64,000 bases of DNA from Deltaproteobacteria bacterium. Lineage in GTDB: Bacteria > UBA10199 > JACPAL01 > GCA-016699445. The notes below the pieces were generated by a model that was not told the origin of the DNA, did no database searches, and saw only the letters and a list, made by a program, of their open reading frames with translations. The stretch is taken from contig CP064976.1 of the NCBI GenBank assembly GCA_016699445.1, forward strand, positions 1,449,125 to 1,513,124, written 5' to 3'. Shown here piece after piece: positions 5,236 through 59,965 of this stretch (position 1 is the stretch's first letter; each line of letters begins with the position of its first letter). A program made the position numbers and the translations under genes.

Positions 5236-6046
5236 ATGAGCTCTAAAACAACCACATCTCTATATAAGACCGCGGGCTTTCTTTCCGAGAATCTCTGGGG
5301 TGTTCTTTCAGCTACGATACATAGTGCCGTCTCACGATTTTATACACGTCTTTATGAAACAAAATTGTCTCGCTATTTTATCGAACCCTATTGTGAATGG
5401 CAGTATCAGGATCGAAATCATCATTTAAAATTTCTTCCAGGCCGCAATAAATCTCGCTACGAATCCTTTCAGGATTTTTTTACGAGAGATTTTAAAGAAC
5501 CTCTCAAGATTACTTCAGAAGCTATCTGGCCTTGCGAAGGGGAAGTGTGTGATTATGAAGAGTCTATTTCGGAAAAACTCATCAATATTAAAGGTGATTT
5601 ACGTCCTATAAGGGCTATCTTTGGTGATACAGAGGGTCTGATCCCCTGATAATTACTATTTCACCAATATTTTTCTTCATAATAAAAATTATCATCACAT
5701 CCATGCCCCAGTGACAGGAAAAATTTTGAGGATGGAACGGATTCGTGGAAAACTTCTTCTCCTCCGTCCGCGTGCGTATCCAGGCCGTCCGTCTCTGCCA
5801 GCGATGCATAATGAACGTGTGAATGTGGATCTGGAAGATCTCCAAGGAAGACATTGGTTTTTGTCTATTGTGGGTGGGCCGGCTGTGGCGACAATTCAGA
5901 TGCTTCCAGAAATGCAAATCGGGAAGACAATTGAGATTGGGCAAAAGCTGGCAAGTTTTTATATGGGATCTACGTGTTGTATTGCTTCACCGATCAAGCC
6001 ACATACAAGTCTTCACCAGTCTGTTTCTGTCGGACAGCCTTTCTAA
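5236..6046 (+). pseudogene. psd: Second phosphatidylserine decarboxylase paralog interrupted by a +1 frameshift at ~5640
   Basis: The N-terminal part (ORF 5236..5649) has the FQDFFTR motif. The C-terminal part (frame 2, open from 5642) contains NYHHIHAP (compare DYHRFHFP in the intact psd at 36286..37146) and the FYMGSTCC (GST) motif. The frames join at a CCCC run. Confidence 0.6.
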
Positions 6047-6052
6047 GATTTT

Positions 6053-8162
6053 ATGAACACGCGAAAATTTTATTGGATGACAGGCCTTGTTTTACACAGC
6101 CTGATGTGGGTCTTCTTTTTCAGATTGGGCATTGATTTTCTCCAGAGTAGCCAAGACTCGTGGTACCAGCTAGCGCGCAATGAGTATTTTGATACTTTTA
6201 TCAAAGTGCAGTTGTCTCTATTGCCCTATTATCTGGCGATAGGCTTGCTTTTCTCTTTTTGTATCGAAAGGATTTTGGATTTTTTTCAAAAGCTCTGGCC
6301 ATCGTCGGGACTATTGAATCAAGGTTTTCGGTACACGATTGTCTTTACTTGGTTTTGGCTTTCTTGGGTGTCTCTTTCGTGGTTGAGTTATTATGCTAGC
6401 TGGTTGGTTCCTTTTTCAATGATGGAACAAAAATTGGGTTTTCGCATCACACATCATCAGCTAAAGATTTTATCCCCTCTGATTTATCTTAATTTTTTAT
6501 TCTTAATCAGTATCCCCATAGTTTCTTTGAAAAAATATTTTCATTTGATCACTTTAAAAAGAAGTCTGATTTTCTTTTTTTTAATCATCGGTATTTTAGG
6601 CTTAAAGTTTGGCCTTCCTTTTTTAAAAATTTCTCAGCATCCACAGACATCAACACAGCCCAATATTGTGATAATAGGTTCTGATGCTATGCGTGCTGAT
6701 CGTTTGGGTATTTATGGTTACTCACGACCAACGTCTCCTCATATCGATGCCATTGGTCGTGACGGGGTTGTGTGTGAGAGGATGTATGTCACAAGCCCTA
6801 GCACGAGTGAATCTCTCTTGTCCCTCATCACAGGACTCACACCTCGCGAGAGTGGGATCCGGTCGATTTTTTATGGGCCTGAAGATATTAAGCGCGTGAA
6901 AGAAAATCCGGGATTGTTCCGATTTTAAAACAAAAGGGCTACGCACAGTTGCTTTGGGTGATTGGTCTGGAAGTGATTTAGGGCGTTTGGCTGATTTTGA
7001 TTTGGCTGATGTTGAGCCTGAAATGAATTTTATCGATTATATCGACGAAGCGGCTCGTCGGATTCATCTGCCACTTTTGGCTTTTTTTGCTAACCCGCTC
7101 AATTCCTGGATAGCTCCTGATTTTGTAGGGCTACTCATTAGTAAACACACAGCCGAGTCGGCTCTTTCGATTGCTGAAAAAGAAATCGGTCAGGTATCAA
7201 AAATCGGCCAGCCACTTTTTATGTTTGTTTTTCTTTCGACGACCCATCTTCCATATGCGATTCCCGAAGGAGAACCTATTACTTTTGGTGATCCTAATTA
7301 CAAAGGTCTTCATGAACGACAGCTTAACTTTTCATCTCTGGATGCCATTTCAACAGCGGACTTAAGCCAAGAATTAAAAAATGATTCTCAAAGAATCAAA
7401 GATCTCTATGACAGCACTGTGTGGCGCTTTGATCAGCAAGTAGCGCGTATTGATACGGCTCTTAAGAAAAGTCATTTGAACAATACGATTTTTATCGTGC
7501 TGGCGGATCATGGGGAAGACCAGTGGGATCCGGGTGTGGGTTTGAGCCGGACTCTTCATGCGGGAGATCAGTCGATTCGTATTCCTTTTATTGTCCGGTG
7601 GCCGGATCATCTGAAGCCTCACAGGATTCAAAATTTGCTTCGAGCCACGGATGTGGTGCCGACTTTAGCGGATCTGGCAGATGCTACTGATGCTGCCAAT
7701 TTTGACAATTCTGAATGGAAAGAAAAGAGCTTTAAAAAACTTCTTGAAGGAGAAAGTCTGCCAGATGATCGCAGTGTTTTTATTGAGTCAGGAATTTCCT
7801 GGACGGGACCGACCTTGTATCCACCCGATGGGCCGCATTTGAGTTATCCCGGAGTGACAAGCTTGGCCGCTCCAGATCGCCGTATCGACTCGCAACTTCT
7901 CATCCCTCACGATAAATTGATGATGGTCATGAAAGCCAAAGATCGTGTTTTTATCCAAGGCCGTTATAAAGTGGCCTACCAACCTTTAAAAACAGGGCCA
8001 TTGGTGGATATGTGTGATCTGGAACAAGATCCGTGGTGTCAAAAAAGGCTTAAGCCTGACCCTCAATTGGCGCAAAAACTTAAAGCAGAAATCATGAAAG
8101 ATCCGGAAGAATTTTATTTAGCTTGGCCCCGAGAGGTTTTTGATCAGGGGTTTGCTCCATGA
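6053..8162 (+). CDS. Membrane-anchored sulfatase / alkaline-phosphatase-superfamily protein (LtaS/EptA-like), split by two closely spaced frameshifts at ~6880-6950
   Basis: Seven or more N-terminal TM helices. Then GSDAMRADRLG...SPSTSESLLSLITGLTP (sulfatase N-terminal metal-binding region with Ser/Thr in place of Cys). The second ORF continues with KGYrTVALGDW and LADHGED (sulfatase C-terminal motif). The intermediate frame 1 reads SGIVPILKQKGY, bridging the two ORFs. Confidence 0.6.
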
Positions 8163-8875: not shown

Positions 8876-8889
8876 AAACCTCACAGCTC

Positions 8890-12657: not shown

Positions 12658-13497
12658 ATGGCTTGGTTTAAAAGAATATTTTTATTTTTAGCGGTCAATA
12701 TCCTGGTTGTCGCGACTATTTCTATTTTGCTTCAAGTGCTTGGGGTGAAGCCTTATCTGACGCGCTATGGGATGGATTATCAGTCGTTGGCGGTTTTTTG
12801 TCTGATTTGGGGTATGGGAGGCGCTTTTATTTCGCTTCTTTTGTCCAAACAAATGGCCAAGTGGATGATGGGTGTTCACATCATCGATGGAAATACTGGA
12901 AGTCGTGAAGAAAGGCTTCTGATTCAGATGATCCAGGGCCTTTCGCAAAAAGCAGGTCTTTCGAAAATGCCGGAAGTGGGGATTTATGAATCGCCCGAGA
13001 TTAATGCTTTTGCAACAGGGCCTACAAGATCCAATTCTTTGGTCGCCGTCTCGCGTGGCCTTTTAAATCGTATGAATGAGACTGAAATTGAAGGTGTCTT
13101 GGGTCATGAAATTACGCATATTGCTAATGGTGACATGGTGACGATGACGTTGCTTCAAGGTGTGGTGAATGCGTTTGTGATGTTTTTGGCTCGTGTGATT
13201 GCCTTTGCGATTGCTAACTCAGGCCGTGATCGTGAAGACCGTCGTGGGGGAGGGTCCTACTTCATGATCCAATTTGCTTTAGAAATGGTTTTTATGATTT
13301 TAGGCTCGATGATAGTTGCCGCCTTTTCGCGCTATCGTGAATTCCGCGCCGATGCCGGCAGTGCTCAAGTAGCCGGCCGCGAGAAAATGATCTCAGCCCT
13401 TCAGGCTTTGCAGCGTGTTTATGAATTGCCCATTCCTGAAAACACTGCTCCCGCATTTCAATCGATGAAAATCTCTTCGCATAAAGGGGTTTCCTAA
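12658..13497 (+). CDS. htpX: Protease HtpX (M48 zinc metalloprotease)
   Basis: N-terminal TM helices, HEITHIANGD (HExxH), and GSYFMIQFALEMVF with the downstream EFRAD typical of HtpX. Confidence 0.9.
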   Translation: MAWFKRIFLFLAVNILVVATISILLQVLGVKPYLTRYGMDYQSLAVFCLIWGMGGAFISLLLSKQMAKWMMGVHIIDGNTGSREERLLIQMIQGLSQKAGLSKMPEVGIYESPEINAFATGPTRSNSLVAVSRGLLNRMNETEIEGVLGHEITHIANGDMVTMTLLQGVVNAFVMFLARVIAFAIANSGRDREDRRGGGSYFMIQFALEMVFMILGSMIVAAFSRYREFRADAGSAQVAGREKMISALQALQRVYELPIPENTAPAFQSMKISSHKGVS

Positions 13498-15510: not shown

Positions 15511-16548
15511 TTTCTGAATCACCGTGTCTTTGTAAATACGTGCCTGCTTTTCCATTTTTACTAAATCCCCACGTTCGAGTTGATCGAAAAGATGATTGTT
15601 AAAGGCTTCGTCTTTATCCTGCCGCATAGCACGGAGGAGGTGAGGGAGATTGCCGGGTCCGCAGAGGAGGCGTTCGGTTTTTCCTTTGGAATTGAGCGGG
15701 CCTGAAACAACACGCCACTCTTGGTTAGAATAGGTTTTGGGTTTTTTGCCTAAGAGAAGAAAAGAACATTTAAGATATTCTTTTTTAATACCGGCCAAAT
15801 GATCGAGTTTGGCAATCCAATCGGGGATTCTCCAATCGATGTAGGTGTGGCACCAGTCGCGATTGTTTTCAGCCAGCATGGGACATTCTCTTTGGTGAAG
15901 GCAGGGCGAGAGTATTGAAATGACTTCGTGGGTGATCAGCTCGTCATGAAGTTTCATGAGCTCGCGAGATGTGAGGCGGAGAGCGGGCTCCATCAAGAAT
16001 ATTTTTCCGGACTCATCTTGATATTTTTGCAGACCTTCCACCAGATGCAGACGTTTTTCTCGAGGGAATTCATTCAAAAAATTGAGAGCGAAAATTAGAT
16101 CAAATTTTTGATTGGGAAGCAGTTGAGAGATCTTTTGATTAAAGAGATTTCCAACAATGATTTGAACCGTGGAAGAGATTTTTTTGTCCGGGAATTTTTT
16201 TCTTAATTCGTTGAGTAAACTATCATGAAAAGCTTGAGCATCTTGTAAGGCCAATCGATTTTGATCGATCAATGTCCAGTGCATTTCTAAAGATTCTGCT
16301 TCAGGAAGAAGGGATTCTTCCACAGCTTGAAACGTTCCCATGAGAGCCGTCCCGGGACCACAGCCTAAATCAAGAAAGCGAAGGGAGATGTTTTTAGAGG
16401 GAGTGAGCGCTTGAGTCCTTTGAAGAAGGCTGGTGACTTTGAGGGCATTTACGGGAAGGAAATACAAAATATAACCTGACCGGTATTCTTTTTGATTGAG
16501 ATAATTTTGAGGGAGCGAGCTGCGCTCTTGTGTGAAGGCTTCACTCAA
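15502..16548 (-). CDS. Class I SAM-dependent methyltransferase, Rsm22-like with C-terminal Cys-rich region
   Basis: FLDLGCGPGTALMG (motif I), and C-terminal SPCLHQRECPM...WCH cysteine cluster as in Rsm22 (PF09243) proteins. Confidence 0.55.
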   Translation of the reverse strand: MSEAFTQERSSLPQNYLNQKEYRSGYILYFLPVNALKVTSLLQRTQALTPSKNISLRFLDLGCGPGTALMGTFQAVEESLLPEAESLEMHWTLIDQNRLALQDAQAFHDSLLNELRKKFPDKKISSTVQIIVGNLFNQKISQLLPNQKFDLIFALNFLNEFPREKRLHLVEGLQKYQDESGKIFLMEPALRLTSRELMKLHDELITHEVISILSPCLHQRECPMLAENNRDWCHTYIDWRIPDWIAKLDHLAGIKKEYLKCSFLLLGKKPKTYSNQEWRVVSGPLNSKGKTERLLCGPGNLPHLLRAMRQDKDEAFNNHLFDQLERGDLVKMEKQARIYKDTVIQKLD

Positions 16549-16832
16549 TTCGCGAATTCCTTTGGCAAAAAAACGATAATCCCCTTCGGTAAATTCGGGT
16601 TTATCTGCAAAATTTTCTTTTCGTGTGCCGACAAAAAATTTTTTTGACGTACTTTTTGATCATGTATTCCCAATGAGCTGGAATCGTCGGAAGCGATTGG
16701 GTTTTCTTATAAGCCATAGGGAAGAGCCTGTATCTGAGAGGGAAAAATGATTCAAAGCTTAATTGTGAACATCTGCTTGCGCAGTTTTGAAACCTTGCTT
16801 ATGTTGCGGGCCTAACAAAAAAGGAGATAGTC

Positions 16833-18801: not shown

Positions 18802-19991
18802 TTAGGGTTCTAAAGCTTTTAATCCCGGCAATTCTCGCCCTTCTAAATATTCAAGAGTCGCTCCACCACCGGTGGAAAGATGTGTAATCTTATCAGAGAC
18901 ACCACTTTTCTGAACAGCCGCCACACTTTCGCCTCCACCGACAACAGATTCAGCACCAGAGTCCGCAATGGCTTTAGCTACGGACATAGTGCCTGTGGCA
19001 AAAAGAGGTATTTCGAAAACACCCATAGGTCCATTCCAAAAAATGGTCTTGGCGCCTTGAAGAATTTCCCGATAGCGCGCTTGTGTTGCAGGTCCAATAT
19101 CCAGTCCCATATCTGTGGGTTTCAATTTAGTTACAATCTGTGTTGAGACATCAGCAGCTACTTTATCTGCAACTACATGATCTTGAGGAAGATATACTGG
19201 AATATTATAATTTTTTGCTTTTTCCAAAATTCGTTCTGCTAAGTGGATCTTATCCATCTCAACTAATGAGTTTCCGATTTCAATGCCTTGAGCACGTAGA
19301 AATGTATAAACCAAACCACCACCCAAAAGCAGTCCGTCTACTTTGGTGATCAGATTTTCAATCAAGCCAATTTTGTCTGAAACCTTGGCTCCACCCAAGA
19401 CAGCATAGAAAGGTTTTGCAGGATTTTTGCTCAATTTTTCCAAAAATTGGACTTCTTTGGCGACGAGAAACCCCATTCCCTTTTCTGAAAAGTAAGACAC
19501 CATTCCTGATGTGGAGGCATGTGCCCGGTGTAAAACTCCAAAAGCATCGGAGATATACACTTGAGCCAGCTGTGCTAACGCTTGAGAAAAGTTAGGGTCA
19601 TTAGCCTCTTCTTCAGGATGAAATCGAAGATTTTCAAGAAGGAGGATATCTCCGTCTTTGAGTTCCAGAGCGAGTTTTTTAACAGCATCCCCAATGCAGT
19701 CTTCAGGAAAAATGACATCTTTGCCTAAAAGTTGGGAAAGCCGTTCAGCCACAACTTCTAAACTATATTTTGATTCTTTTCCTTTGGGTCGTCCTAGATG
19801 AGAACCAATGATGATCTTAGCTTTTGATCCAGAAGATATTGAATCGTGGGAAGTGCTTCACGGATTCGTGTATCATCTAATATTTTTTTAGGATCTGATT
19901 TGTCGCGAGGGATGTTGAAATCCACCCGTAAAAAAACGCGTTTTCCAGAAACTTGAAGCTGGGTGATAAGGAGGGGAGATTTGTTTGCCAT
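18802..19991 (-). CDS. pgk: Phosphoglycerate kinase, interrupted by a single-nt frameshift at ~19796 (homopolymer)
   Basis: N-terminal fragment: [12 protein letters not shown]...[18 protein letters not shown]. The main frame continues upstream of its ATG as [31 protein letters not shown]. The two frames meet at a T4/A4 run. Confidence 0.85.
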
Positions 19992-21070: not shown

Positions 21071-21343
21071 CTAACGGCCTCTCTTGGACATTTCTTCTTC
21101 GCAGTATTTTTTATAAATAATGTCCCATTCACGACTTCCTTCAAAGACACCACGCTTTAAAGAGGCGATTTTGGCTCTTGCAATGTCATCCACTTCATCT
21201 TCTATTTTGAAATAATCATGGAGCATCTTCTTCAACTCTCGAAGTGTCTTATCTTCATCGGGATAATCCACCAGCATATCATTATAGATGCCGTCATGAA
21301 TCAAATGCGCTAAATGTGAAATACGGTCTTCTGAAAATTTCAT
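21071..21343 (-). CDS. DUF507 family protein
   Basis: Small acidic protein, adjacent paralogous partner; the pattern matches the DUF507 tandem pairs. Confidence 0.45.
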   Translation of the reverse strand: MKFSEDRISHLAHLIHDGIYNDMLVDYPDEDKTLRELKKMLHDYFKIEDEVDDIARAKIASLKRGVFEGSREWDIIYKKYCEEEMSKRGR

Positions 21344-21621
21344 AGTATAAACTTTCTCTCTTTGATGAGCTGTTTTTTAATCATGGTAAAAGCTTTTTGA
21401 GAATCAATAGCTCCTGAGGCTATCTGAGACTTGTATTGATCCATAAGCTTTCGAGCATCACGTTCGATAGTAGCTTCTTCATCAAGATTTTTCTGAAATA
21501 CCGCTTCAATTTTAGCTTCAATCTTGTCTTCACCCACCAAAGGCTTGATGAGATTTTGAGATTTTAAAAAACGCAGGATCTTGATGGAGAGTGTTTTGAT
21601 TTCTTCTTTTTTGAGGGACAT
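21340..21621 (-). CDS. DUF507 family protein (partner)
   Basis: 4-nt overlap with the downstream DUF507 gene; similar size and charge profile. Confidence 0.45.
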   Translation of the reverse strand: MSLKKEEIKTLSIKILRFLKSQNLIKPLVGEDKIEAKIEAVFQKNLDEEATIERDARKLMDQYKSQIASGAIDSQKAFTMIKKQLIKERKFIL

Positions 21622-24229: not shown

Positions 24230-25688
24230 CTATTTTTTCTTTTCTAATATATTTTTGCCAATAGAAGTGATTCGATATTTTTGCATGCGACTATTAGGTT
24301 TATCGGGAAGAGTCATTTCAATAAATCCTTCTTTTAATGCTGGCAGGATATAAGCTTCTCTGAAGTGCATACGATCTTTTAGCCCCAGTCTTTTTTGTAA
24401 TTCTTGACGATCCATCTCTCCTTTCAAAACGGTCAGAAGACCTTCGACTTGAGGGGTGACTTGAGGGGTGACTTGAGGGGTGACTTGAGGGGTGACTTCC
24501 TCGGTCAGAGTTGGTGATAGCGGAACAGTCACGGAAAATGTATCACTTTCAATGAAGACAGGTTTTCCTGCTTGAGGCGCATAAAATGGTAGATACTTAT
24601 TTACATTGTTAACACCCGAACCAAGCTCTTCATAACGACCGAGCTGAATCAAAAATTTACAGAGAGTTGGATTTTTTGGGTAAGGTGTAAAATGTTTTGG
24701 ATCAATGGGTCCGCGGCCGTGAGGAATGTTTGGATTTTTAAATTCTATACGATCTTTGTAGATGATCATAGTGGCTGGAGCGGCACTGGTGTATTCTCGA
24801 TGAGCAATAATATTGGCTACAAGCTCACGAAAAATACGAGCTCTGAGGCTGACGCTGGTGGTGCCTTCTAAATAAAAAGGATCATCAAGATGTTTATCGA
24901 CAAATCCCATGAGTAAATCGAAAGCGTCGATGAGATTGGTGCGAACGATGAGGCGATCATCGTAACGGTCTATATCGCGCCGACGCACGAGAGCATCAAA
25001 TTTGTAACCAGGTACAATGCTTTGAATAATTTCATCTGTGCCAAACATGAGAGCTGCCGCCAGTGTGTATCCATCTTGGCCGGTAAAAACATCTTTTCGG
25101 ACAAATCCTGCAATGTGCAGAAGTTGTAGAGGTGTTAATTGAGCCCAAGGATGCTGTGGATGACGCTGCCGCATGAGAATTTTGGCTTTTTCAAAAAGGT
25201 CAGGATTTAAATCTGTCATTGTTAAAAAAGGTAAAACACGCTGCTCAGTAAAAAACTGAGTTTGCGATTAACCAGTCCTGCAATGCGATTCAAATCAGCA
25301 ATTCGGTAGTCACCATCTTCGCTGCGTAAAAAAACAGCTCCCCCTGATTTATGTACTTGAGAGCTGGCGGGTACCTGGATTTTTATAATCCACTTTCCAT
25401 CTATTTTTCTTCATGAGGAAATAATAAATAAGGAGGGTCTAATTTAGAGGGATTGTTGGAGAGATTTGAGATGTCTGACTTGATGTGTTCAACAGAGTCT
25501 GGATCGATACCGACAACATGGCCATTATTATCAATTCCCAAGACAATCATCCCTCCATCCAAATTAAGAAAAGAACAGACTGTTTCAAAAAGATTTTTAG
25601 GAATCTCTCGGAAGGCTTCTTTAAATTCTAAACAAGTTGTTTCTTTTGATCCAAAAGGATTTTTTTTATTCATGAGTTTTCCATCCAT
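24230..25688 (-). CDS. ATP-binding protein with AlbA_2 (Schlafen-like) N-domain and HATPase_c_4 (RecG-C-terminal-like) C-domain; two frameshifts between 25220 and 25400
   Basis: ORF 25401..25688 encodes the AlbA_2-type N-domain. A third frame is open across 25220-25400 (IDGKWIIKIQVPASS...RIADLNRIAGLVNRK). The main ORF has ELVANIIAHREY and ELGSGVNNV, plus a C-terminal winged-helix-like tail. Includes the TPQV x4 repeat. Confidence 0.6.
24441..24490. repeat. Perfect 12-bp tandem repeat (ACTTGAGGGGTG) x4 inside the coding region, encoding (TPQV)4
   Basis: ggggtgacttgaggggtgacttgaggggtgacttgaggggtgactt seen directly. Confidence 0.9.
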
Positions 25689-29975: not shown

Positions 29976-30323
<348 letters not shown>

Positions 30324-30361
30324 TGTCTGAACCACACTAGGTGACTGCGAGTAACTCTCTC

Positions 30362-30405
30362 AAGGCAGGGCTTCTTTTTAGAGGCCCTGCCTTGGTTTTA
30401 TTTTT
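30362..30405 (+). terminator. Rho-independent terminator after glnK
   Basis: AAGGCAGGGC-loop-GCCCTGCCTT hairpin followed by GGTTTTATTTTT. Confidence 0.6.
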
Positions 30406-32003: not shown

Positions 32004-32369
<366 letters not shown>

Positions 32370-35015: not shown

Positions 35016-37146
<2,131 letters not shown>

Positions 37147-39539: not shown

Positions 39540-41143
39540 AATTTTCTTCCACCACATGACAGCTACACCCGCCGCTGCTGTTAGCTCCGGGTGTTTCTCC
39601 AGGGTTAGGGTTGTTGCCTGCAGAACCTGATGTTCCGGAGTCTCCACCCGTTCCAGAAGATCCACCTGTGCCACCAGAGCCAGAAGGCCCACCAGTGGCC
39701 AAAGTTCCCCCACTGCCGCTGGATCCACCTGTTCCACTTCCGCCACCACTACCTCCAGAAGATCCACCTGAGCCGTTAGACCCACCGCTACCACTGGATC
39801 CGCCAGTGCCCTCTCGTTGGCAAGTGGCCGAGCATCCATCTCCAGAAATGCTATTTCCATCGTCGCAGGTTTCATTTCCCATCACGATGAAGTCAGGGCA
39901 GATAGCTTCCACGGGGCCTATATCGCAATTAGTGTCTCGCATGCAGCCTAGTTGATAGGGTACAGGATGAAAAATATAAGCCTGTCCAATATCATTCAGA
40001 TTATTTTCAAACCCATTACAATCCAACGTGTTTTGATCTATGGCGGATGCTCCTATGCTTCCCGGAAAGTAAGTTTTGTAAGTGTCGTTATAAACAATCG
40101 CGGGTGTATTGCTTACAATGTCTGGAAGAAGGGAAGTGCTTCGAGTGACAGGACATGCGAAGCGATCAGAAGTCCCGATGATGTTTTTTCCTAATGAAAA
40201 AAGAGTAGAGGACCCCTCTATTCCACTCATATAACAATCAGAACCTGTTGCTATTGATGGCGACACGTTGTTATTCGAAATAATACTGTTTTTGATACTG
40301 CTAAAGGAGTTTTGCATCACAATGCCTGGATATACATTCGACGTGTTTGCTGTAATGATAGAATTCCAAAGTGCAAAATTGACCCCTATCACATACAAGC
40401 TGGTTCCAGTATTTCCAAAGATAGATGAGTTTTGAATATAAAGATTGGGACGTAGGATTGATGTTGAATAGCTCCGAGCAAAGATACCTATACCATTATT
40501 TTCATAAATCGAACTTTTTGAAATAAGTAATGTCGCTGCATTAGTTGAGCAGGAGTCTAGAGGAAGATATCCAAGATAGATACCATGGCTTCTATTTTGG
40601 GTGATGACTGAGTTTTCAAGAGAGACAAATAAATTACATGCACTGCTGATATAAAGACCTCTTAGACCTCCTCTAATATCAAGCTTTTCTAATTTGACAT
40701 CAGAACGAGGCCCTCCATCAGAAAATATTTTGATCACATCGCTTGTTGTGAATGTATCTGTTCCCGAAATGATAGCCCGGTTGTTGTTCGTTGTAGTTAT
40801 TAATAGAGAATGACTTATGAATAAAGAGCTGATGGGGGTGGGTCCATAGCCGCTTAACAGGAGCCCTTGCGTAAGAGTATAAGACTGTCCTCCAATCAGC
40901 AAAATCGTATCTTGTTGTCCAAAATCACTACCTGTATTGGTGCAACCCCCTAAGTTGGATGATATATTGACCGATTCAATAGCCTCTCGTAACGAACATG
41001 TCGTATTCGGCATCGGAGTATCATACTCATCCACTGTCGTATTCACCCGAATCGTTGCAGCCTCAGCTGAGGAGAGAGTTAGGAGAATGAACGAGAGAAA
41101 AACGAGAGAAAAGATTTTTAGATGTTGGTTCTGGAAATTTCAT
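39511..41143 (-). CDS. Secreted right-handed beta-helix (PbH1 repeat) protein with a ~90 aa Gly/Ser/Thr-rich C-proximal stalk; probable frameshift in the signal-peptide region (~41115-41140)
   Basis: Repeated IxGN/SxI beta-helix rungs (NSSIFGNTGTSLYV, NSIITANTSN, SSIKNSIISNN). C-terminal (GSG/GTG)n run. ATG at 41143 with a GGAG RBS; the signal peptide (…IFSLVFLSFILLTLSSAEA) sits one frame off downstream of an A5 run. Confidence 0.6.
39590..39830. repeat. Low-complexity GGN/AGY-codon repeat tract (encodes the Gly/Ser/Thr stalk)
   Basis: Degenerate repeats of ccacc(a/t)g(t/a)gg / ggatccacc units. They produce spurious ORFs 39501..39875(-) and 39611..39955(+) in the other frames. Confidence 0.7.
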
Positions 41144-41494: not shown

Positions 41495-41797
41495 ATGACT
41501 CAAAAAACCATTCCATCGACGGAATTAAAGCAACATTTAGGAGATTATTTGGGGAAAGTCGTTCACGGCGGCCAGACTTTTCTGATTGAAAAGCACGGTA
41601 AAGCCGTAGCTGCTTTGGTGCCAATCGAAACTATTGTGCTAAAAAATCAATCCTCCCCGAAAACACCTTGGGCTCTTGAGTTGGAAAAATTGGCTGAGGA
41701 TATTTTCGAATCTAATAAAAATAAAAACTTGGGACCTTCAGATGCCGTTCAGCTCGTGAATGATGCTCGAGATGAAGAGGATAGGCGATTGCTATGA
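41495..41797 (+). CDS. Type II antitoxin, Phd/YefM family
   Basis: STELKQHLGDYLGKVVHGGQTFLIEKHGKAVAALVPIE; 4-nt ATGA overlap with the downstream PIN toxin. Confidence 0.8.
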   Translation: MTQKTIPSTELKQHLGDYLGKVVHGGQTFLIEKHGKAVAALVPIETIVLKNQSSPKTPWALELEKLAEDIFESNKNKNLGPSDAVQLVNDARDEEDRRLL

Positions 41798-42234
41798 ATG
41801 ATGGGATATGCATCGACGCCAATATTTTCGTGTCTACCCAAGATATTTTGGAGCCTCATTATCGAACCAGTGTCAACGTTCTCCAAGAAATAGAAACTCA
41901 ATCGAAGCCCATTTTTATTCCTGCCGTCTTTCTTTTTGAAACGACTTCCGTGCTCCATCGAAAACGCCTTCAAGGCCTCTTGACCACAGACCAAGCTCTC
42001 AGATCTTTTGACTTGCTCAGAAGGCTTCCTTTTTTGGCGCACTGGGATCTGGAAATTTTGGAAGAAGCTCAAAGAATGGCTTCAATGGCGGGAGTGAAAA
42101 GAATCAACGACTACACCTACGTTGCCGTTGCTCAAAAAAGAAAAATCCCATTTGTGACATTAGATGAACAGCTCATCAAAACGGGTAAACAGTTTTATTC
42201 CCAGATTGTGCATGCTTCTAATTTCCATTTCTAA
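41794..42234 (+). CDS. vapC: Type II toxin, PIN-domain (VapC-like) ribonuclease
   Basis: N-terminal ICIDANIFV (first acidic residue), followed by Thr/Ser and distal Asp residues characteristic of PIN. Translationally coupled to the antitoxin. Confidence 0.8.
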   Translation: MNDGICIDANIFVSTQDILEPHYRTSVNVLQEIETQSKPIFIPAVFLFETTSVLHRKRLQGLLTTDQALRSFDLLRRLPFLAHWDLEILEEAQRMASMAGVKRINDYTYVAVAQKRKIPFVTLDEQLIKTGKQFYSQIVHASNFHF

Positions 42235-42431
42235 ACCTTTTCATTGATCTGAGACTTAGGTATCATTCGAGGTATGTTTCAAAAACGCCTTTTAGGACTA
42301 GTGTTCATCACCCTTTTTTTGACGCATTGCAATCCAACGGATACGACCCTGGGTTCGGGGGGGAGTGGTGGAAGTGTGTCTGATTTTTTTAGCGCCTTAT
42401 TGCCCAACGCTTCCAAGTCATTAGGAGATTT

Positions 42432-43006
42432 ATGAATTGGTTTCAGTCTATCATTATGGCTTTTATTCCGATCTTTGTAGCGATTGATCCACTGGGGATG
42501 GTGCCTGTTTTTTTATCGATGACTCAGGGATTGATCCTCTCAAAGTGAAGACAATTGCCAATCAGGCCACTTGGACGGCAGCTGCGATTGCCATTGGTTT
42601 TGTTTTTTTAGGGAAAATTGTTTTTAAAGCATTGGGTATTACGATTCCTGATTTTCAAATAGCGGGTGGATTGGTGTTGTTGGCGATTGCTATTAAAGAT
42701 CTTTTGTTTCAGGCCGAACGCATTCCGTTGTCTCAGGAGAGTATTGGTGTTGTTCCTTTAGGGATGCCACTAGTGGCGGGCCCGGCTTTGATTACGTCTT
42801 TGATCGCGTTGGTAGACACGGTTGGTATTCTCTCTACGGTTATTGCTTTGGGTATTAATCTGGTTCTGGTTATTATTACTTTTCGTTATGCGGCCAAACT
42901 GGCTTCATGGGTGAGTGTTTCAGGGATGAAAGCTATGGCCAAAATTGTGTCTCTTTTATTGGCCGCGATTGCAGTGAATATGATTCGTCGTGGAATAAAT
43001 TTATAA
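42432..43006 (+). CDS. marC: MarC-family (UPF0056) inner-membrane protein, with 1-nt frameshift at ~42527 (GGG versus GGGG)
   Basis: MNWFQSIIMAFIPIFVAIDPLGMVPVFLSMTQG, then a frame change to (I)DPLKVKTIANQATWTAAAIAIGF...; six TM helices overall. Confidence 0.75.
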
Positions 43007-44848: not shown

Positions 44849-47078
44849 ATGAAACAAGAATCTAAAAAAAATAAAAAAAGAAAAGGTCTCCCTTGGGGAC
44901 TTTTCCTCTTTGTTTGTGTGATGGGTCTTGGGCTGTATGTTGTGGCCTTAGACATGCAAATTCGTAAAAAGTTTGAATCTCATCGGTGGAATCTTCCTTC
45001 AAGAATCTATTCGGATTCCTATGCTCTTTATCCAGGCCGTTTAGTGGATCCTTCTGAAATTGAAGCCCGTCTGGATCGGTTGGGTTATAAAAAAGGCCTA
45101 CCGGACCTAAAAATGTGGGAGAATATATAAGGGGAGCTAATCAGGTTTCTATTTTTCTCCACAGTTTTTCGTATCCTTCGGGCGATATTGATGGAGTTCC
45201 TATCCAAATCAGTTTTGCAGAGCGTAAGATCACATCGATTGTGCGTTTGGATAATCAGGAAGTTTTAAAAACAGTGAAGCTTGAACCTGAGCTTGTTGCT
45301 TCTATTTTTGATGAAAAAATGGAAGACCGTACCTTGGTGTCCATGACTGATATCCCTGATGCTCTTCTCAATGCCGTGGTAGCTGTGGAGGATGAGCGCT
45401 TTTATTCTCACCATGGGGTAGATCCTATTGGTTTGGCAAGGGCACTATTGGTAGATTTGGTTCATTTAAAAGCCGTGCAGGGTGGAAGTACTCTGACTCA
45501 GCAATTGGTTAAAAATTATTTTCTGACTTCCAAAAAGACTTTTGGGAGGAAGTTAAATGAAATGGTGATGGCTCTCATTTTGGAAGCTCGTTACACCAAA
45601 GAGGAAATTCTAGAAGCTTATCTTAACGAAATTTATTTTGGCCAACGTGGAGCTGTCTCTGTGACCGGTGTGGAAGAAGCCGCTAAAATGTTTTTTTCCA
45701 AAAGTGTGAGTCAGCTTTCCATTGCCGAATGTGCGCTGATAGCGGGTGTTATTCGATCTCCAGGGGAATATTCGCCTTTTCGTAATATCAACAAAGCCTA
45801 CGATCGTCGCAATTTTGTCCTTAAAATGATGTGGAGTCAGGACGTCATCGATGATCGTGAATATGCGGATGCTAAAAAAGAGAAGATTATATTGTCTCCT
45901 GTGAATAATCGCTTTTTGCGAGCGCCTTATTTTGTCGATTTTATTCAGACTCAGCTGAAATCAGATTATTCAACCGATGTGCTCAAATCAGAAGGCTTGA
46001 GAATTTTTACTACACTAGATCCTTTGGCTCAGGATATTGCTGAAGAAGCTTTGCAAAAGCATTTGGAAAAGCTGGAGGCTGACAAGCCCAAACTCAAAAA
46101 GAATCGTGAAGAAGGCAAAACTCTCGAAGGTGTTTTTGTAGCTGTGCAGCCTCAGACTGGAGCGATACGCGCTTTTGTCGGGGGCGGGATTATGAAGTGA
46201 GTCAGTTTGATCGTGTAACTGAGGCGCATCGACAGCCAGGTTCGGCTTTTAAACCTTTTGTCTATCTCACAGCTCTTAATCAAGAAGGTGGAAAATATAC
46301 GTTGGCTTCGACTCTTGAAGACACGTCTTTTACGGTGAAGAGCGGGGATAAAAATTGGTCGCCTGAAAACTATGATAAACAAGAGCATGGGACGGTTCCA
46401 ATGCGAGAAGCTCTTGAGCAGAGTATGAATATTGCCACAACACGCTTAGCAATGGATGTGGGTCTTGATTTGGTTGTGGACATGGCTCATGGGGCAGGGA
46501 TCGATAGTCCTTTAGATCCTGTACCTTCTCTTGCTTTAGGCGCTTTTGAAGTGACGCCTTTGGAATTGATTCGTGCGTATACGATTTTTCCTAATCAGGG
46601 TACACGTACAGAGCCTGTGGCATTGATGAATGTAGTCACGCGCGATGGTGTCTTGCTTGATAAGAAAAGTTATCAGATGAAACGTGTGATTTCTCCGGAA
46701 GTAGCCTATCTCATGAATAATCTTTTGCGAGGTGTGGTGGATCGTGGAACAGCCGCTTCTTCACGAACGATGGGTTTTTCGGGATTAGCTGCAGGGAAGA
46801 CGGGAACGACGTCTGATTACAAAGACAGTTGGTTTGCAGGATATACTCCGGATTTGTTGGCGGTGTCTTGGGTGGGCTATGATGATAATACCTCGACGGG
46901 ATTGTCAGGAGCTTCGGGACCGTTGCCGATTTGGACAGAATTTATGAAGCGAATGAATCCTCCAGGGGCTTCTCAGGCAGATTTTTCAGCGACTGATAAT
47001 ATTGTGATGGTGAAGTTTGAAAGAGATGGGAAGAGTTATGAAGAGCCTTTTATCAAAGGAACAGAACCGAATGATTAA
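44849..47078 (+). CDS. mrcA: Class A penicillin-binding protein 1A (bifunctional glycosyltransferase/transpeptidase), with two single-nt frameshifts at ~45120 and ~46193
   Basis: N-terminal TM anchor. GT51 motifs: EDERFYSHHGVD, GGSTLTQQLVKN, RKLNEM. Then transpeptidase motifs: GSAFKP (SxxK), SxN region and GKTGTT (KTG). The frames join as ...VGGG|DYEVSQFDRV at a G-run. Confidence 0.85.
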
Positions 47079-50266: not shown

Positions 50267-53200
50267 TTAATTTCTGCGTCGAGGCGGTGTTTCTACTGTA
50301 GGTCCACGGGCGGCGGTTTGCAGCGTGCTGTCACCTTCTTGAGTCTGTGTACTTCCCTCTATTTCCAAGCCTCTATCAGTGATCCTGCCATTGTGAGTTA
50401 ACGTATGACCTTCAACGCGAGTGACAATCTGTAATCTATCATTCATGTGAATTTCACTTCCGCTATCCACCAAGTGACCATTGATTAAAACAACATTACC
50501 CTCTTGAATGTTGACGTTCCATGTGTGGCCGTCATTAGATCTTCTGAAAATTATAGGAGGAATCGTTTGAGGTGTTAATCTGGGAAGATTAACATTGGTC
50601 ATCGTTGGAAAGGTAGGTGCTTGCCCCCCTACGGTGATCAGATTTACCGAGGGATTTATATTTACAAAAGCGGGTAATGCCATGTTGGGGTTTGTCGAAT
50701 CACCGAAGTCAGGCTCAACGACAGTGGCATCAGTCGAAGCTGCTGCGGGAGTAGCCCGTCGTGATAAACTATTGGCTCGTTCCAAGTCTTGGCTTGTTAC
50801 GTTCATACTATCATCAAGAAGCATCATTCGTTCCTCTAATCGAGGATTCGTTACATAATGATCTCCCGCACGTGTAATAAATCCACGAGCCAAGGCTTCT
50901 TCCCGGGAAATAGAAAAGCGACTTTGTTCTCTTCTATTCATTGAATGGAGTGTTACCGTGAGATTTGGTGCATTAGCATCCAGGATACGAGTGCTTACTA
51001 AGACTTGTCCTGTCAGGACTCCAAAGCCTTGGGAGCTATCCCTGATGGAAAGGGTTTCAGCTCCTCCTTCAGAATTTTGAATGGATAAATCTCCAATGGG
51101 GACTTCGCTGTGAGAGATTGTTGGATTATTAATTTCTACAAATCTTCCAGTAATATTTAAGCGAATCCTTCCACCGGGAGGGAGTGTATAAGGTATTGGA
51201 GGTGTTGCAATACGACGTTGAGCTGGAGTGGTGTATCCTACCGGAACGTCATGACGAGGGAATAGTGTCGGTTGATCTTGTTGTACTACTGAAAGTCCGT
51301 TTGCACTCAAATTCCAATTACCATCTTGAGTGGGTGCCCCATCTCGAATCAGCATATTGCCATCGTTGTCGTAATCTACAGTAAAATGTTGGTTGGATAT
51401 ATTCTGGCCTGCCTCTGGAATATTGGAACGTCCAAAGATTGTGCGAGGGCCTTGAGTGGTCAGTGTGGATGTCGTGGTGTTTTGAATCTGGTCTTCTCAT
51501 GACGGGAAGAGATTCTATTCCTGGAAGCTGTGGTGAAGACCGAGATGGTTGAGCTGACGGAGAAGGTGTTGACATGGCTTGGGCAGGCAATTGAGCGAGA
51601 GGATCGTGAAATATAAATCTCCCCACAATAGTTTCACTCATACCCAGCCATGAGTTTTTGACAAGACTCACTTGATCACCTTCTCTAAATCCTGATCTTA
51701 ATGTATTCGGATCTGTCACTTCACTTCCTTGCCGAACGACACGCCAACGATGTCCTGAAGGTAATGTTGAATTGCTAAAAGTCCAGTAGGACTCTTGAGA
51801 GTTTGGCTTTGTGGCCCGTACAATTTCAAAACTATGCCCTCCGATCGTTCCGGGAGAAGGCTGATTGGGATTTCCAGTGATAGTAATTGGAGCGCCTACC
51901 GGAAGTGGTCTTCCATTTCCTAGAGGTCCTGAAGGTCCAATCCCTCCAGCTAATCCCCAAACAGCTGCGAGAAGGGGATTTGTCATCAAAGCATGTGGAC
52001 CGGGACGCATTGGACGGGACGTTGGTGCGGCATCACTCCTTCTGGTATGTTCTGGGTTAATCGCTTGAAAATGCACCACTGCTCCATCAGCTCCTCCCAA
52101 CCTCCACTCTGTCTCACTGATTTCCGTGATGGGAATATTCTGTTCTCGAGCCTGATTTCTTAAAGCTAATTTGGCATTGTTTCGAGCCCCAACAGAGTGA
52201 GTGATCGTTAGGGAGCGTTCTCCAGGATTGAATAAGTATCCGAGGCCTGCAGGTCTTTCTCCAGGAGATGCGAGAGGGTTATTGCAAAAATTATAAATGG
52301 GTGTCGCAATGGGTTGGGTGAATGGAATCGTCTCGGGCCCTGTAGTAGGACGTGTGTTGTTGGTGGCGTGGGTGGTCGTTGTAGGGGTGTCGTGAACAAT
52401 AAAATGACGAGCTGTATCGCCTTCTCCGACGATCACATGGTCTCCCACATTCAGAGGAAAATCGAGGCGTCTTTGGCTTGCTGGAATTAATTCTTCTGCT
52501 CCTGATGTGTGCCAGACAGTGACCGGGACTCCGGTTTGATTATTAACTAAAAGTCTTCCATCGTCTGATCGTGTAAAAGACAGATGCGCAGAGGCGCCCC
52601 TTAAGACAGAGACATTACGCCTTTCTCCAGAATGAAGAGGATGACCTCCAAGATTGATGATTTGAGGTGTCGATTCCGTCTGAGGTGGAGGCGTATAAGC
52701 TGATGCCCCAATCGCTACGGTCGAGCTGATTGGAAGTCGAGGGTCAGGTCTTGTGGCAGAGATTCTTCCTGTTCGTGATTCTCTTACAGAATTTTGTGGC
52801 AGTGACGGAGTGGTCGCCCCTACACTGCTAGGAGTCGATCTTCGAGATGGTGTCCTACCAAAAATAGCTCCTCCTAATCCACCATCAGCTCCTAAAATTG
52901 AAAACGTCAGTCCCAGGCCTGGAGAACGGAAGGGATTTGATAATCGCATGTCATTGGCTTGAGCGAGAGCATCGACCAGTTGTTGGGTTTGAGCATGTTC
53001 TTCTGCTGTAACGATGTCCCGTACAGCCACATGTTGTTCGAGTCGTTGTCTTGCGGCGACAGCTGCTCGGAGCCGATCTCGTACCTCACTGCCACGTCCT
53101 TCGCCCTGCGTGAAATAACGATTCCAGGCTTGACCGGCTTCCTGACTGGTTCTGACAGCGGCTTCATACCGCCCTCTCACACGCGAGAGTGCCACTTCTC

Positions 53201-55716
53201 TTGCCGCTCCGTGAAGACGACCTAAAATCGGTGACGTTGTGAGATGTCCCACACGCATGCCTAAGATGAAGAGAGCATTGTCCTGCAATGCTTGAGTACT
53301 GTTTAATGTTTCGTTGGTGGCACGGCTCAAATCAAAACGACTGTGGTAGATATCGGAAAAATTACGTTCGGCAAAACCCCATGTTTGAACCGCCGCTAAT
53401 TCAGGGACTATAGCTGCAGTATTTACGGCGGTGCTTGTCAATCCGTCTTGGGCGACGCGCGCGGCTCGAGCTTGGATAAGAGAGATCTCGGTGGCGGATC
53501 GTGTGCTGTTTGCAGCGAAGGTGCCTTCATGAATCAATTGTCGTTCAGCAATACGAGCATAAGCCGTTTGTTGAACCAAACGAAGTGTTTCTCCGATGAA
53601 AACATTGTTTCCAAAATTTCTTATATAATCTTCGCCATACCGTTCCAGATTTTCAGCTCCGGTTTGACTGCTGTCATGCAAGTTGTTCGTGCCCAACAAA
53701 ACATCAGAGGCCGCATAGTGAGCTAGTTGAAAAGCAGGCGTGGTTGCTGCTGTATAAAGAAGTCGGGTGCCTAAGGCAGCTTCTCCAGCTTCGATAGTCA
53801 GAGCTGTTTCGGGTAAGAGGAGAAGGCCTGCGGCATTCATTGTAGCAGCCGCAGCCGCCACAATGCCCAAGCTGAGACCAGCTTGTAAGCGTCCTGTGAA
53901 CACATGATGATCTTGCAGCTCTTGCCCCACTTGAGCTTGTTCGAGTTGAATAAAGTCATGTCGGGCTTGATCGAGACGTCCAGCGTTTAGATCCTCTCCG
54001 ATATTTTCGTAGCGGTGGATCAATTCTTCATACCGACTTGCGAAATCCGAAGTGCCTCCTTGAGCCGCACTTGCCCACGTGTTGATATAATCACCTGTTC
54101 GTATTTGAGGAAGTATCGTGCGATACATTTCGATGCGGCTGCGGATGGATTCTTGTAAAAGGGCTGTATCCATTTGACCCATGATTGATTGGTAATGCTC
54201 GAGTCGCACGCCCACATCAGAAAAATTTCCGTTTTGAGTTTGTACTCGTCTCATCTCGTCAGTGAGTTCAGGATTATTGGCTTCATGAAGCTCAGAATTG
54301 ATTAAAAGCCGCGCTTGCTCTTCGTCGCTACGCAGAGTGAATCTTACGGCCTCTGTGAGATTTTGAAGTATGTGAGGATCGTTGTGAGTCATGGCAACGA
54401 CTCGATTTTGCATCACTGTATTTTCTTGCTGCAGTTGTCGTAATCTTACTTCTTCAGGAGAAGGCTCAATCTCACCATCTATTTCAGAAGAGCCGCGTCC
54501 ACTGCGGACAGGATGAGAATGTTGCCGAAGAGCTTCGAGGCGATTGACCTCTTGAGATATTTCCTGACCACTCACTTGAAGACGTCTTAAAAGATCTTCT
54601 CGAGTTTGTTGCAAAGCAAGGGGTGGGAGACTTTCTGAAGAAGCATTTTCCAAAACTCTCAAACTTTGGTGAAGAGTCTCTATCGATGACAAACTTTCCT
54701 GAAGACGTCGTCGTGCCTGAAATCCTGGATTGTTTTCTAGATCTCGATGTTGAGTTTCTTGAACACGATTAAGAAATTGAAACAATGGATGAGGATGTTC
54801 GCGGTCGAGAGGATTGCCATACGTGTGATGAATGAAGTGAGTCTCTCTTTCTAAATCTTCAAGTCTGACCGTTTCATCTAGAGGATGCTGGTTGTTGATA
54901 TCAGCCACAGCTCCCGACATGGCTCTGGCCATTTCTTGTTCCCGAGGATTGGAAGAGCGAGCAAGCGTTTCGTAGGTTCTGATGATGGGGAGATTGCTTA
55001 TGATATCTGTGGAAGGAAGATAGGGACTTTGTTCTTCACGGACATCATAATACTCTAGATGTATGCCTCGAGAAGAAACAGGGTAATGATCTTGAATGAT
55101 GCCAATCATGCGCTCTCGGTGTGTATGCGCTTGGTAATAATTCCATGTAGTCGTAGCGATGTGTTGTCCATCAGCGGTGTTGCGAGCACGGTGATGAACA
55201 GCCCCCATGAGTAATAGTTCTCTCGCGCTCGACGAGTGTGCGAAATCCTTCAGAACGAATCTGTCCAGCGGCTTTCATGCGGCTTAAGTGTATGGAGAGT
55301 TGTGAGAGCTCTGCTAAACGAGCGTGCTGGCTGAAAGGTCGATCGGGATGACGTGCTTGTTCTCTTTCCATCGTCTCTGTGAGTCGATGAATTTCATTTT
55401 TTATTTGGTCTTCGAGCCGATCGACTTCGGATCGGTTTTGTAAAGAAGCAGCTGTCGTTGAGGGAGATGTTGGAGCCGCAATCGGTACCATGCCCGCCGC
55501 TCCGCGAAAGAGAGGATTAGTGGGGGCTATATTGGTTGTCCCTGGAGAGAGTGAAATGCTTGGAAGCGACAAGCTGAATCCGGGAGTGATAAAATGAGGT
55601 GTCGGTGGTGAAGGCTCCATGCCTCCAGGGCTTGGAGTTTCTGGAGTTTCCGGACGAGAGTGTGGTGTTCGATGGATACTTGGATAGGTAGGTGGTTGTC
55701 GGATGTGCTTCACCAT
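50267..55716 (-). CDS. Giant (~1,815 aa) Pro-rich / coiled-coil protein with central bilobed hydrophobic domain; reconstructed across two homopolymer frameshifts (~55200 G5 run; ~51480 A4 run)
   Basis: Listed ORFs 55171..55716, 51318..55208 and 50267..51355 are consecutive with overlapping ends. Removing one G at the catGGGGGctg run gives ...ERTITHGAVHHRARN. Removing one A at ttcAAAAcacc gives ...PVMRRPDSNTTTSTLTTQGPR... The N-terminus is PT/SP-rich. The centre has two hydrophobic helices ~50 aa apart (GLSLGIVAAAAATMNAAGLLLL ... ALGTRLLYTAATTPAF). Confidence 0.5.
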
Positions 55717-57833: not shown

Positions 57834-57884
57834 CGTGCCTGCTTAAAAAAACAATTTAAGAGGGTCAAGGAATTGAAAAAGATG

Positions 57885-59965
57885 TTACGTTGTGGGTTCG
57901 CCTGAAATGGGCTCTTCTGGTTTAGGAGCTTCAGGAGTCGGTGTTTCAGGAGCCGGACTCGATGTTTCTGCAGCTGCTTCTGAGGGGGGTTCGGGTTTTG
58001 TTTCTAAAGGTATTTCTTGAACCTGTTCAGGTGTTTCTGGGGCCGGTTGAGAAAGGAGTGCTTCCATTGATTTGTCAACAAGGGCTGGAATAAAAACTGT
58101 AAAAGTTGTTCCTTTGTTAAGTTCAGAATTCACCAGAATAATACCTTTGTGATCGGCTACGATGGCGTGAAGAGTAAATAGCTTAATTTCTTCTCCTGTA
58201 TCCACTTGAGAGCTTTTGGCTTGAGAGGAAGAATCAAACATCTTGTTTAGGACTTCTTCCGAAATACCAGTGCCCGTATCTGAAACGACAATTTTTACAT
58301 AAAACCCTTTTGTCAACTGAGGTACTTCCGTTTCAGTATTTTTAGATTCTTGATGGTTGGTTGCGATGAGAGACAATTTGCCACCTGACGGCATAGCATC
58401 TCGTGCATTAAACGCCAAATTCATGATGACCTTTTCAAGATGAGAGGCCACACCCATGATGGGAAAAAGTTGTGGGTCTAATTCTAGGCTGAGAACTACT
58501 TTGTCCGTGAGAATTTGGGAAAGTGCTTGATGTGTTTTGGTGATTATTTCTGAAAGATTAATTTTTGATTTTTCAGGAACGGCTGTTTTTGAGAGAAGTA
58601 AAAGTTGATTAATAACCTGTGAGGCTCTTTCAGCAGATTTTTTTACTACTTCCATTTTTTTAAACTCTCCGGGTAGTTCGGTGAGTTTTCCTAAAAGTAA
58701 ATTGGAATATGCTAATATAGGAGTGATGTGACTTTGAAAGTCATTGGCTGTTTGCTGGATGACCTTATTCATAAAATCTGATTTTTGTGTTTGAAATAAT
58801 TGCCTCTGAGAAGCTTCAAGTGCGGATCTCATTTGAGCCAAAAGATTCAAGGCTCGTGTGCGACTGTACATCAAAGACCACACAAAAGTAGCCAGTGACA
58901 GGCTCAGTAAAGTCCCGATCATCCAAATCCAACGAGAGTTGAGTTTGATTGATTTGTAAATACTGGATTCCAGCCAAACAGATTCTGGTATGGCTGTGAT
59001 CACACGCCATTTGCCTTCATCTTTAATATCCAGAGGAACGGATTTTATATAGGCATAACCTGGAAGATTTTCTTCCTCTAGGAGAGTTGATAAATCATCA
59101 TGTATTTTCTGAGGTGTATCCGGGTGAGAGAGTGTGAAGCCATGGTTGGAATTCAGGATAAAGTAAGGATACTCAAGAAGTTTGGATAAGACCGATGTTC
59201 TTAAAACAGCTGTGATCATGCCTCGAAGAACCCCATTGCTTCCATAAAAAGGGACGGAATAGATGACTCCTTGGCGAGGATTGTCATTTTTCTTTTCAAT
59301 ATCGAGAGCTGTCATTTCAGAATTGTCACAAGTAATGATTTCCTGACTGACCAGAGCAGGGAAATTTAAATTAGTGAAGTTATCAACATTGCCAAAATAG
59401 CGGTGAAAATATTCCAGCTGTTTTTTCATCTCTTGATATTCAAAGTGCTCGACTTCTTCCAGATTGATTTTATCCTTTTCAGTATCTCCAGTTTTGCCTG
59501 AAATAAAATTATCAAAGCTTTTGATAGGGGCTTCTGGTTTTCCTGTATTGGGATCTATCCTGTCTGGATCTAAACTTTCTGGAACGATATAAATTTCGGA
59601 AACAGAAATGGAAGAGAAGAGATTGTTATAAATTTCCTGAACGGTGATTTCAGAATCATTAAAATTAGTTCCATACCGATCAACCTGTTGAACTCCAGGA
59701 AGCAGAGCAATGGTTCTCAGCGAGTTGTAAATAATATTGAGGTGAGTATGAATAATTTCTTCATTTTTCCCCAATCGTTGAGCCCAATCTTTTTGAAATA
59801 AAAGAAGGCCATACTCGATATCTTTTTACTCATTTTTGTGATGACCCACTGGGTAGTGAAGAGTCCACAAGTAAAAGCTATCAGGGCGACAATGAAAACA
59901 TTTCGAAAGCTGCTAAAAAAACCTTTTTTACTTTTTTCTACGTCTCTTTGAGATTTTTTGGGCAT
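57885..59965 (-). CDS. Sensor histidine kinase with periplasmic sensing domain and Pro/Glu-rich C-terminal tail; 1-nt frameshift near ~59790 (A5 versus A6)
   Basis: ORF 59717..59965 encodes the cytoplasmic N-terminus and TM1 (VFIVALIAFTCGLFTTQWVI). The main ORF has TM2, a DHp region (FQSHITPILAYSNLL) and HATPase_c (LAFNARDAMPSGGKLSL, SDTGTGIS, G-box GTTF). Adding one A to the AAAAAG run joins the frames (FYFKKDWAQRLGKNEE). Confidence 0.8.

Follow-up and report, generated by a model that had tools for sequence, protein, structure and literature searches.

The window examined in this study is the whole stretch of 64,000 nt (64 kb) from a Deltaproteobacteria bacterium (GenBank assembly GCA_016699445.1, contig CP064976.1, positions 1,449,125 to 1,513,124 of the forward strand), in which many protein-coding genes, including pgk, marC, two psd genes, PBP1A, a glnB copy and the gene for a giant protein, are interrupted by frameshifts. 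The split genes were recognized by stop-to-stop open reading frames (ORFs) combined with three-frame translation at each site. At the sites listed in an earlier note on this DNA, adjacent fragments on the same strand were found in different frames, the Pfam matches of the fragments covered successive portions of one family model, and the joining of fragments yielded one contiguous, higher-scoring Pfam match per repaired protein. In total, we identified approximately 17 frame changes, which affect 13 of roughly 60 genes (approximately 22%). The earlier note had listed 12 sites in 10 genes. Its claim that these genes are split across frames was supported for all but a beta-helix protein, where the indication is a signal peptide that lacks a start codon, whereas its count was too low: the sulfatase and AlbA_2 genes each carry two shifts, and three lesions (HtpX at 13486, an Rsm22-like gene at 16633–16645 and the main psd at 37129) were missing from the list. 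Sequence comparison indicates that the frameshifts are very probably errors of sequencing or assembly, of technical cause, and not pseudogenes.

Two genomes served as references. Using HtpX as the query, we reached a sister strain through a 99% identical protein of 299 aa (P0121; the window HtpX has 279 aa), and its sequence was taken from the Logan assembly of SRA run SRR12404947 (contigs L083, L085, L086 and L087). The window overlaps these four contigs over 21.3 kb with a nucleotide identity of 97.5–98.8%; the sequencing platform of the sister contigs is an assumption, and the sister strain, diverging by 1–2.5%, is a different genome from that of the window. With repaired PBP1A as the query, we obtained an uninterrupted 741-aa homologue (P0001; 85% identity) on a 208 kb contig of GCA_964555055.1, hereafter the 85% relative, the neighbourhood of which is syntenic with the window and encodes MarC (191 aa), PBP1A (741 aa) and the giant protein (1998 aa) as single ORFs. 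A search of species-representative genomes with PGK detected relatives of at most 60% identity (uncultured metagenome-assembled genomes) and no same-species genome, and exact-protein look-ups with GAPDH, a 546-aa ORF, glnB1, GIY-YIG, 2OG oxygenase and a PEMT-like gene gave no match, so that the sites in the psd paralog, the sulfatase gene and the second glnB copy have no near-identical reference. Seven lesions were defined at base level against the sister strain, and 10 of the 17 at protein level, by the 85% relative, distant homologues or Pfam.

Within the coding sequence covered by the sister strain, exactly seven frame-breaking differences were detected, all of which were deletions in the window. 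The C-terminal frameshift of HtpX (13486–13489, + strand) corresponds to a run of five G in the sister contig L083 and four in the window, and shortens the product from 299 to 279 aa. For the Rsm22-like methyltransferase (16633–16645, − strand), the sister sequence A7-G-T7 is reduced to A6T7 by a 2-nt deletion, leaving an ORF of 348 aa in the window versus 405 aa. In pgk (19822–19825, − strand), the window has T4 on the + strand (A4 in the coding sense) where the sister has five, a 1-nt deletion; L085 contains an intact 400-aa PGK, while the window fragments match the Pfam PGK model at 1–49 and then at 46–379. The main psd carries an N-terminal frameshift (37129–37135, − strand; T7 in the window, T8 in L086), in agreement with a tblastn frame change at 37110–37134 and with the alignment of the relative's PSD from its residue 14 onward only. 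In marC (42527–42531, + strand), GGGTATT of L086 reads GGGATT in the window, a single non-repeated T being lost; the L086 MarC is intact (191 aa), the 85% relative agrees (tblastn frame change at approximately 42530), and the window fragment begins at position 37 of the Pfam profile. At site b of the giant gene (55219–55226, centred at approximately 55223, − strand), two nucleotides ('CA') are lost in a non-homopolymer GC/AG-rich context, as judged from the alignment to L087, with a tblastn frame change at 55198–55226. Finally, a histidine kinase gene (59823–59827, − strand) has T5 on the + strand (A5 coding) where L087, which encodes the intact 693-aa kinase, has six. A contraction of the same kind was also found outside genes, at an intergenic homopolymer at 42314–42320 (T7 in the window, T8 in the sister).

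These alignments bore out the frameshifts proposed earlier for pgk, marC, giant site b and the kinase, although several of the proposed coordinates were 25–35 nt off: the pgk lesion lies at 19822–19825 and not at 19796, the kinase lesion in the T5 run at 59823–59827 and not at 59790, and the first PBP1A lesion (see below) in the A6 run at 45089–45094 and not at 45120. The C5 run at 55202–55206 was rejected as giant site b, being the same in both strains. Two generalizations failed. The lesions had been described as all single-nucleotide, but two of those directly observed (Rsm22-like and giant site b) are 2-nt deletions; and they had been placed without exception at homopolymer runs, from which marC and giant site b depart.

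Some of these genes show further differences between the strains. Near the pgk N-terminus (19904–19914, − strand), an in-frame 12-nt indel directly follows the conserved VDFN(V/I)P motif, where the sister strain reads VDFNVPLSSKHDKSD, and synonymous divergence is locally raised near this indel. The Rsm22-like gene (15730–16613) has a synonymous divergence of 0.30 from the sister strain, compared with 0.01–0.05 in its neighbours, and a ratio of nonsynonymous to synonymous divergence (pN/pS) of 0.026; this gene was likely imported by recombination from a more distant lineage. A Phd/YefM-PIN toxin–antitoxin pair (41495–42234) adjoins marC.

The remaining lesions were located through relatives, homologues or Pfam. 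Both PBP1A sites of the earlier note were upheld by the 85% relative, against which the tblastn high-scoring segment pairs (HSPs) change frame at 45079–45094 and at 46173–46185. At site a (45089–45094, + strand) the window has A6 where A7 is required (the relative reads ...RLGYKKRPT...), and at site b (46180–46184, + strand) G5 where G6 is required (...AFVGGRDYE...); in Pfam, the PBP1A fragments match UB2H from position 25, the complete transglycosylase, and the transpeptidase from position 33. The break noted in the AlbA_2/HATPase_c_4/Fic-like_C gene was likewise substantiated, both junctions being fixed by distant homologues. At the first (25380–25384, − strand; T5 on the + strand, A5 coding; one additional base required), the homologue P0338 reads ...PYLLFPQGEQVDNKWVIK..., and the window ...PYLLFPHEEK followed in another frame by IDGKWIIK...; at the second (25250–25255, − strand; A6 on the + strand, T6 coding; one additional base required), homologues read ...NRKLGIFTEQRVFP..., and the window ...NRKLSF followed by FTEQRVLP.... 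In a HMMER search with the C-terminal fragment, which carries HATPase_c_4 and Fic-like_C, homologues of 490–560 aa aligned from fragment residue 3–5, corresponding to their own residue of approximately 143. The AlbA_2 match extended over 1–66 (47 bits, first fragment only) before repair and over 1–116 (66 bits) after repair.

For the psd paralog, the two sulfatase junctions and the second glnB copy, the sites were defined by Pfam together with the short stretches in which neither frame is closed by a stop. The psd paralog junction was assigned to the C4 run at 5643–5646 (+ strand), within the sole interval open in both frames (5638–5648); a +1 shift is required, that is, a 1-nt insertion or a 2-nt deletion, and the PS_Dcarbxylase matches of 1–59 and 67–194 in the fragments become 1–194 (97 bits) upon repair. 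The sulfatase fragments match the Pfam Sulfatase model at 1–66 and then at 153–300. Here, a first 1-nt deletion (6900–6912, + strand; frame 2 to frame 1) lies near GGG at 6910–6912, and a second (6927–6950, + strand; frame 1 to frame 0) within an AAAAGGG or TACGCAC stretch; repair via ...NPG-IVPILKQKGY-RTVALGDW... scored 131.9 bits with two shifts versus 115.8 bits with one. At the start of the second glnB copy (32035–32040, + strand), ATG followed by A6 reads MKKSKP*, whereas with A7 the frame continues into the P-II N-terminus. Position 2 of the P-II profile corresponds to residue 11 of a stop-to-stop frame without a start codon, and the repaired N-terminus matches P-II 1–44. This copy belongs to a segment (28413–33839) of three consecutive ammonium-transporter genes, of which the first two are each followed by a P-II (glnB) gene.

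When the relative's single 1998-aa ORF was compared with the giant gene by tblastn, the frame changed twice, with HSPs in frame −3 down to 51567 and in frame −1 from 50791. Since the ORF of the relative is continuous and the N-terminal half of the FHA-like domain in the window has no start codon of its own, site a was placed within 51440–51497 (− strand), where a +1 shift is required and the candidates are the T4 run at 51480–51483 and an AGAAGA stretch just upstream. The giant protein (50267–55716, − strand; about 1,820 aa) has a weak FHA match near its C-terminus as its sole Pfam match, and is 31–44% identical to its counterpart in the relative, whereas PBP1A is 85% identical; no relatives were found in JGI metagenome contigs. 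It appears to be a fast-evolving, lineage-specific protein. For the beta-helix/DUF4215 protein, a frameshift is probable but was kept as a candidate, on the basis of a signal peptide without an in-frame start codon: the site (41115–41119, − strand) would lie between the ATG at 41143 (MKFPEPTSK) and the signal peptide KIFSLVFLSFILLTLSSAEA, and the gene is absent at the corresponding position in both the sister strain and the 85% relative. More widely, the segment 38300–41440 contains a 377-aa ORF (38406–39539) and this secreted protein (39511–41143, − strand), both missing there from the two genomes; the sister strain has the Leu/Phe-tRNA-protein transferase gene directly followed by Phd/PIN, and the segment looks like a strain-specific island.

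Four other candidates for frameshifts were rejected. The chain of overlapping ORFs at 8.1–10.6 kb consists of four separate genes (2OG oxygenase, LigB, TspO and a CoA-binding protein), and the overlap of PBP1A with a TPR gene at 47.0 kb involves two genes, as in the relative. The two halves of DUF507 (21071–21621, − strand), which Pfam models as one family of 182 positions, are two genes of approximately 90 aa with an ATGA overlap, and as the sister strain has exactly the same junction, this split is natural. A tblastn frame change at 14.4–14.7 kb was antisense noise.

Next to the position of the lesions, their direction was strongly biased. Fourteen of the 17 frame changes are deletions, and the other three call for a +1 shift, as either one inserted or two deleted nucleotides would give; none is a clear insertion. 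Put differently, all seven direct events and all 14 resolved events are deletions, seven of the 14 being judged as 1-nt deletions from the relative, homologues or Pfam. In the first 12 kb compared with the sister strain, the proportion of runs that differed rose with run length (0 of 187 4-mers, 2 of 78 5-mers, 0 of 38 6-mers, 1 of 12 7-mers and 2 of 2 8-mers), and every change in run length, one of them intergenic, was a contraction. Five of the seven direct events occurred at runs of at least 4 in the window (at least 5 in the sister), which make up 11% of bases (binomial P = 3e-4). At the inferred sites, runs of at least 4 showed no excess over chance, being present in approximately 30% of random intervals of the same size (P about 0.3), so that the homopolymer enrichment is drawn from the direct events only. 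The junctions of giant site a and the sulfatase gene involve runs of just 3–4, and such runs are likewise not rarer than expected by chance for intervals of this size. Runs at the lesion sites are 3–7 long, some consist of G or C, and runs are lacking at two sites. The link to homopolymers is real, yet not universal. As three of the seven lesions in the covered 21 kb had been missed in the initial reading, further unlisted lesions are likely elsewhere in the window, of which about 43 kb lies outside the overlap with a near-identical reference.

The divergence from the sister strain was mosaic, from 0% over 1.3 kb to about 9% at 15.7–16.6 kb, and the deletion at giant site b lies amid clustered substitutions. 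Such features might be expected if the consensus had been built over a mixture of co-occurring strains, which could have given rise to some of the lesions, above all the 2-nt losses where divergence is locally high. We consider this contribution unlikely, as it does not account for the clean loss of one base from a run in sequence that otherwise matches (HtpX, pgk, main psd and kinase); it would also still be an assembly artefact, leaving the overall conclusion unchanged.

The state of the broken genes on either side of each lesion bears on whether the deletions could be genuine. Codon-level comparison with the sister strain indicated strong purifying selection on both sides, with pN/pS of 0–0.17 (0.17 for the giant protein). 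Downstream of the lesion, the synonymous to nonsynonymous differences numbered 74:7 in the Rsm22-like gene, 5:0 in pgk, 5:0 in the kinase gene and 2:1 in marC. In the same comparison, neither in-frame stops nor large deletions were found in the broken genes, and in the 340 aa past its frameshift PGK matches the sister protein at every residue (100% identity). Natural coding indels between the two strains preserve the reading frame, their lengths (12 nt in pgk, 3 nt within the giant gene and, at 62.26 kb, 9 nt) being without exception divisible by three, and the remaining indels lie in divergent intergenic DNA. Natural indels have been filtered by selection, and the 1–2 nt deletions have not. 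The deletions affect coding and intergenic DNA alike and extend to central genes (pgk, PBP1A twice and the main psd), and two genes have paired lesions 35–130 nt apart with no other damage. Real, very recent mutation in a mutator or decaying lineage, for example one deficient in mismatch repair or newly host-restricted, would have inactivated approximately one-fifth of the genes by homopolymer slippage. Homopolymer contraction is indeed typical of replication slippage and of mismatch-repair loss, and the reference is a different strain; but the nature of the genes hit, the lack of nonsense codons and large deletions, the selection persisting downstream, the identity of PGK past its frameshift, the in-frame natural indels, the absence of clear insertions among 17 events and the otherwise undamaged paired sites leave this explanation very improbable. 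That the run lengths are true as written, implying recent 1–2 nt deletions in approximately one-fifth of the genes, pgk and a class A PBP included, is if anything a shade more doubtful; were it so, this uncultured bacterium would be a hypermutator in mid-collapse or a lineage that tolerates frameshifts via widespread recoding.

Recoding that keeps the interrupted frames functional, by programmed ribosomal frameshifting or by transcriptional slippage at the runs, has a negligible chance of being correct: several sites are A or T runs, and lysine tRNAs can slip on A-rich stretches such as that at PBP1A site a, but PBP1A, MarC, PGK, the kinase and the giant protein are uninterrupted in the sister strain and/or the 85% relative, so that the frameshift is not conserved, the runs are short, marC and giant site b have no repeat, the required shifts go in both directions, some arising from 2-nt deletions, and the long A/T tracts (about 9 or more) needed for rescue by transcriptional slippage are not found at the lesions, with their runs of 3–7, some of G or C, and two sites without any.

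An error of the assembly is favoured because the sister strain has an intact gene at each of the seven sites it covers, the shorter sequence being that of the window every time, and because pseudogenization would bring nonsense mutations, relaxed selection and the sparing of essential genes. In this respect the earlier note was sustained: it had preferred errors to pseudogenes, as do the intact sister genes (7 of 7), the deletion bias, the dependence on run length, the low pN/pS and the in-frame natural indels. We propose that the assembly consensus has lost one or two bases at many places, mostly in runs of 5–8 bases and in a few cases beside short runs or in low-complexity sequence, through the known deletion-biased homopolymer error of an unpolished or low-coverage long-read assembly (nanopore-like). 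Each lost base would shift the reading frame, and ORF callers would then split or truncate approximately 13 of roughly 60 genes. Most likely, the real genes of the organism are intact.

Several points weigh against an assembly error. We infer both the technical cause and the sequencing platform, the former from sequence comparison and not from raw data. The reference is a sister strain of 1–2.5% divergence, whose intact genes are no proof for the strain of the window, and 10 of the 17 lesions are known from protein-level evidence only. Slippage is naturally frequent at homopolymers, bacterial genomes are naturally biased towards deletion, and the lesions of marC and giant site b lie outside homopolymers.

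As the earlier note anticipated, ORF-based annotation fragments genes here, approximately 13 of roughly 60 being split or truncated, and such annotation of this contig inflates the counts of hypothetical proteins and pseudogenes. Unpolished gene calls could imply false losses in glycolysis, cell-wall synthesis and PII signalling. Short ORFs, overlapping ORFs and 'truncated' domains in the window need to be checked against the lesion coordinates first, and gene-level conclusions from the contig are untrustworthy before polishing with short reads or a reference. The frameshifts themselves are a data-quality problem and hold no new biology.

Two further observations concern contig L087. At 62300–63410, the ORF at 62204–63349 (381 aa) has no counterpart in L087, which joins the flanks directly; judged from this alignment, the segment is a second strain-specific insertion. 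In L087 itself, a Phd-ParE pair (6130–6704) lies just beyond the region in common with the window.

The pattern of lesions can be compared with known cases of gene interruption. In Mycobacterium leprae and recently host-restricted symbionts, many genes are interrupted by lesions of mixed types, selection is relaxed and core metabolism remains intact. The window shares with such genomes the high proportion of interrupted genes, but differs in having only 1–2 nt deletions, strong purifying selection and affected core genes. Flow-based sequencing (454 and Ion Torrent) likewise produces homopolymer frameshifts, which fragment genes in older assemblies, but these platforms both over-call and under-call and rarely delete non-repeated bases, while every resolved event in the window is a deletion and two lie outside runs. 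The closest similarity is to unpolished long-read assemblies of bacteria and metagenome-assembled genomes (nanopore R9-type and PacBio CLR, as known from IDEEL-type tests and Kastor correction), in which, as in the window, 1–2 nt deletions are concentrated in homopolymers at a rate rising with run length, a minority of deletions fall outside repeats, approximately 20% of genes appear frameshifted, and assemblies from short reads lack the lesions. Indels at homopolymers are known to fragment the gene calls made on nanopore consensus sequences (PMC9262707). In one assembly of older chemistry, 23.3% of genes were annotated as pseudogenes, of which 89% had frameshifts only, mostly from deletions in homopolymers and occasionally from the loss of a non-repeated base (PMC12007338); the approximately 22% of genes broken in the window, almost all by frameshift, agree with this profile. 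Compared with unpolished long-read assemblies in general, runs as short as 4–5 (true length 5–6) are affected in the window, and these short affected runs may point to older chemistry or low coverage.

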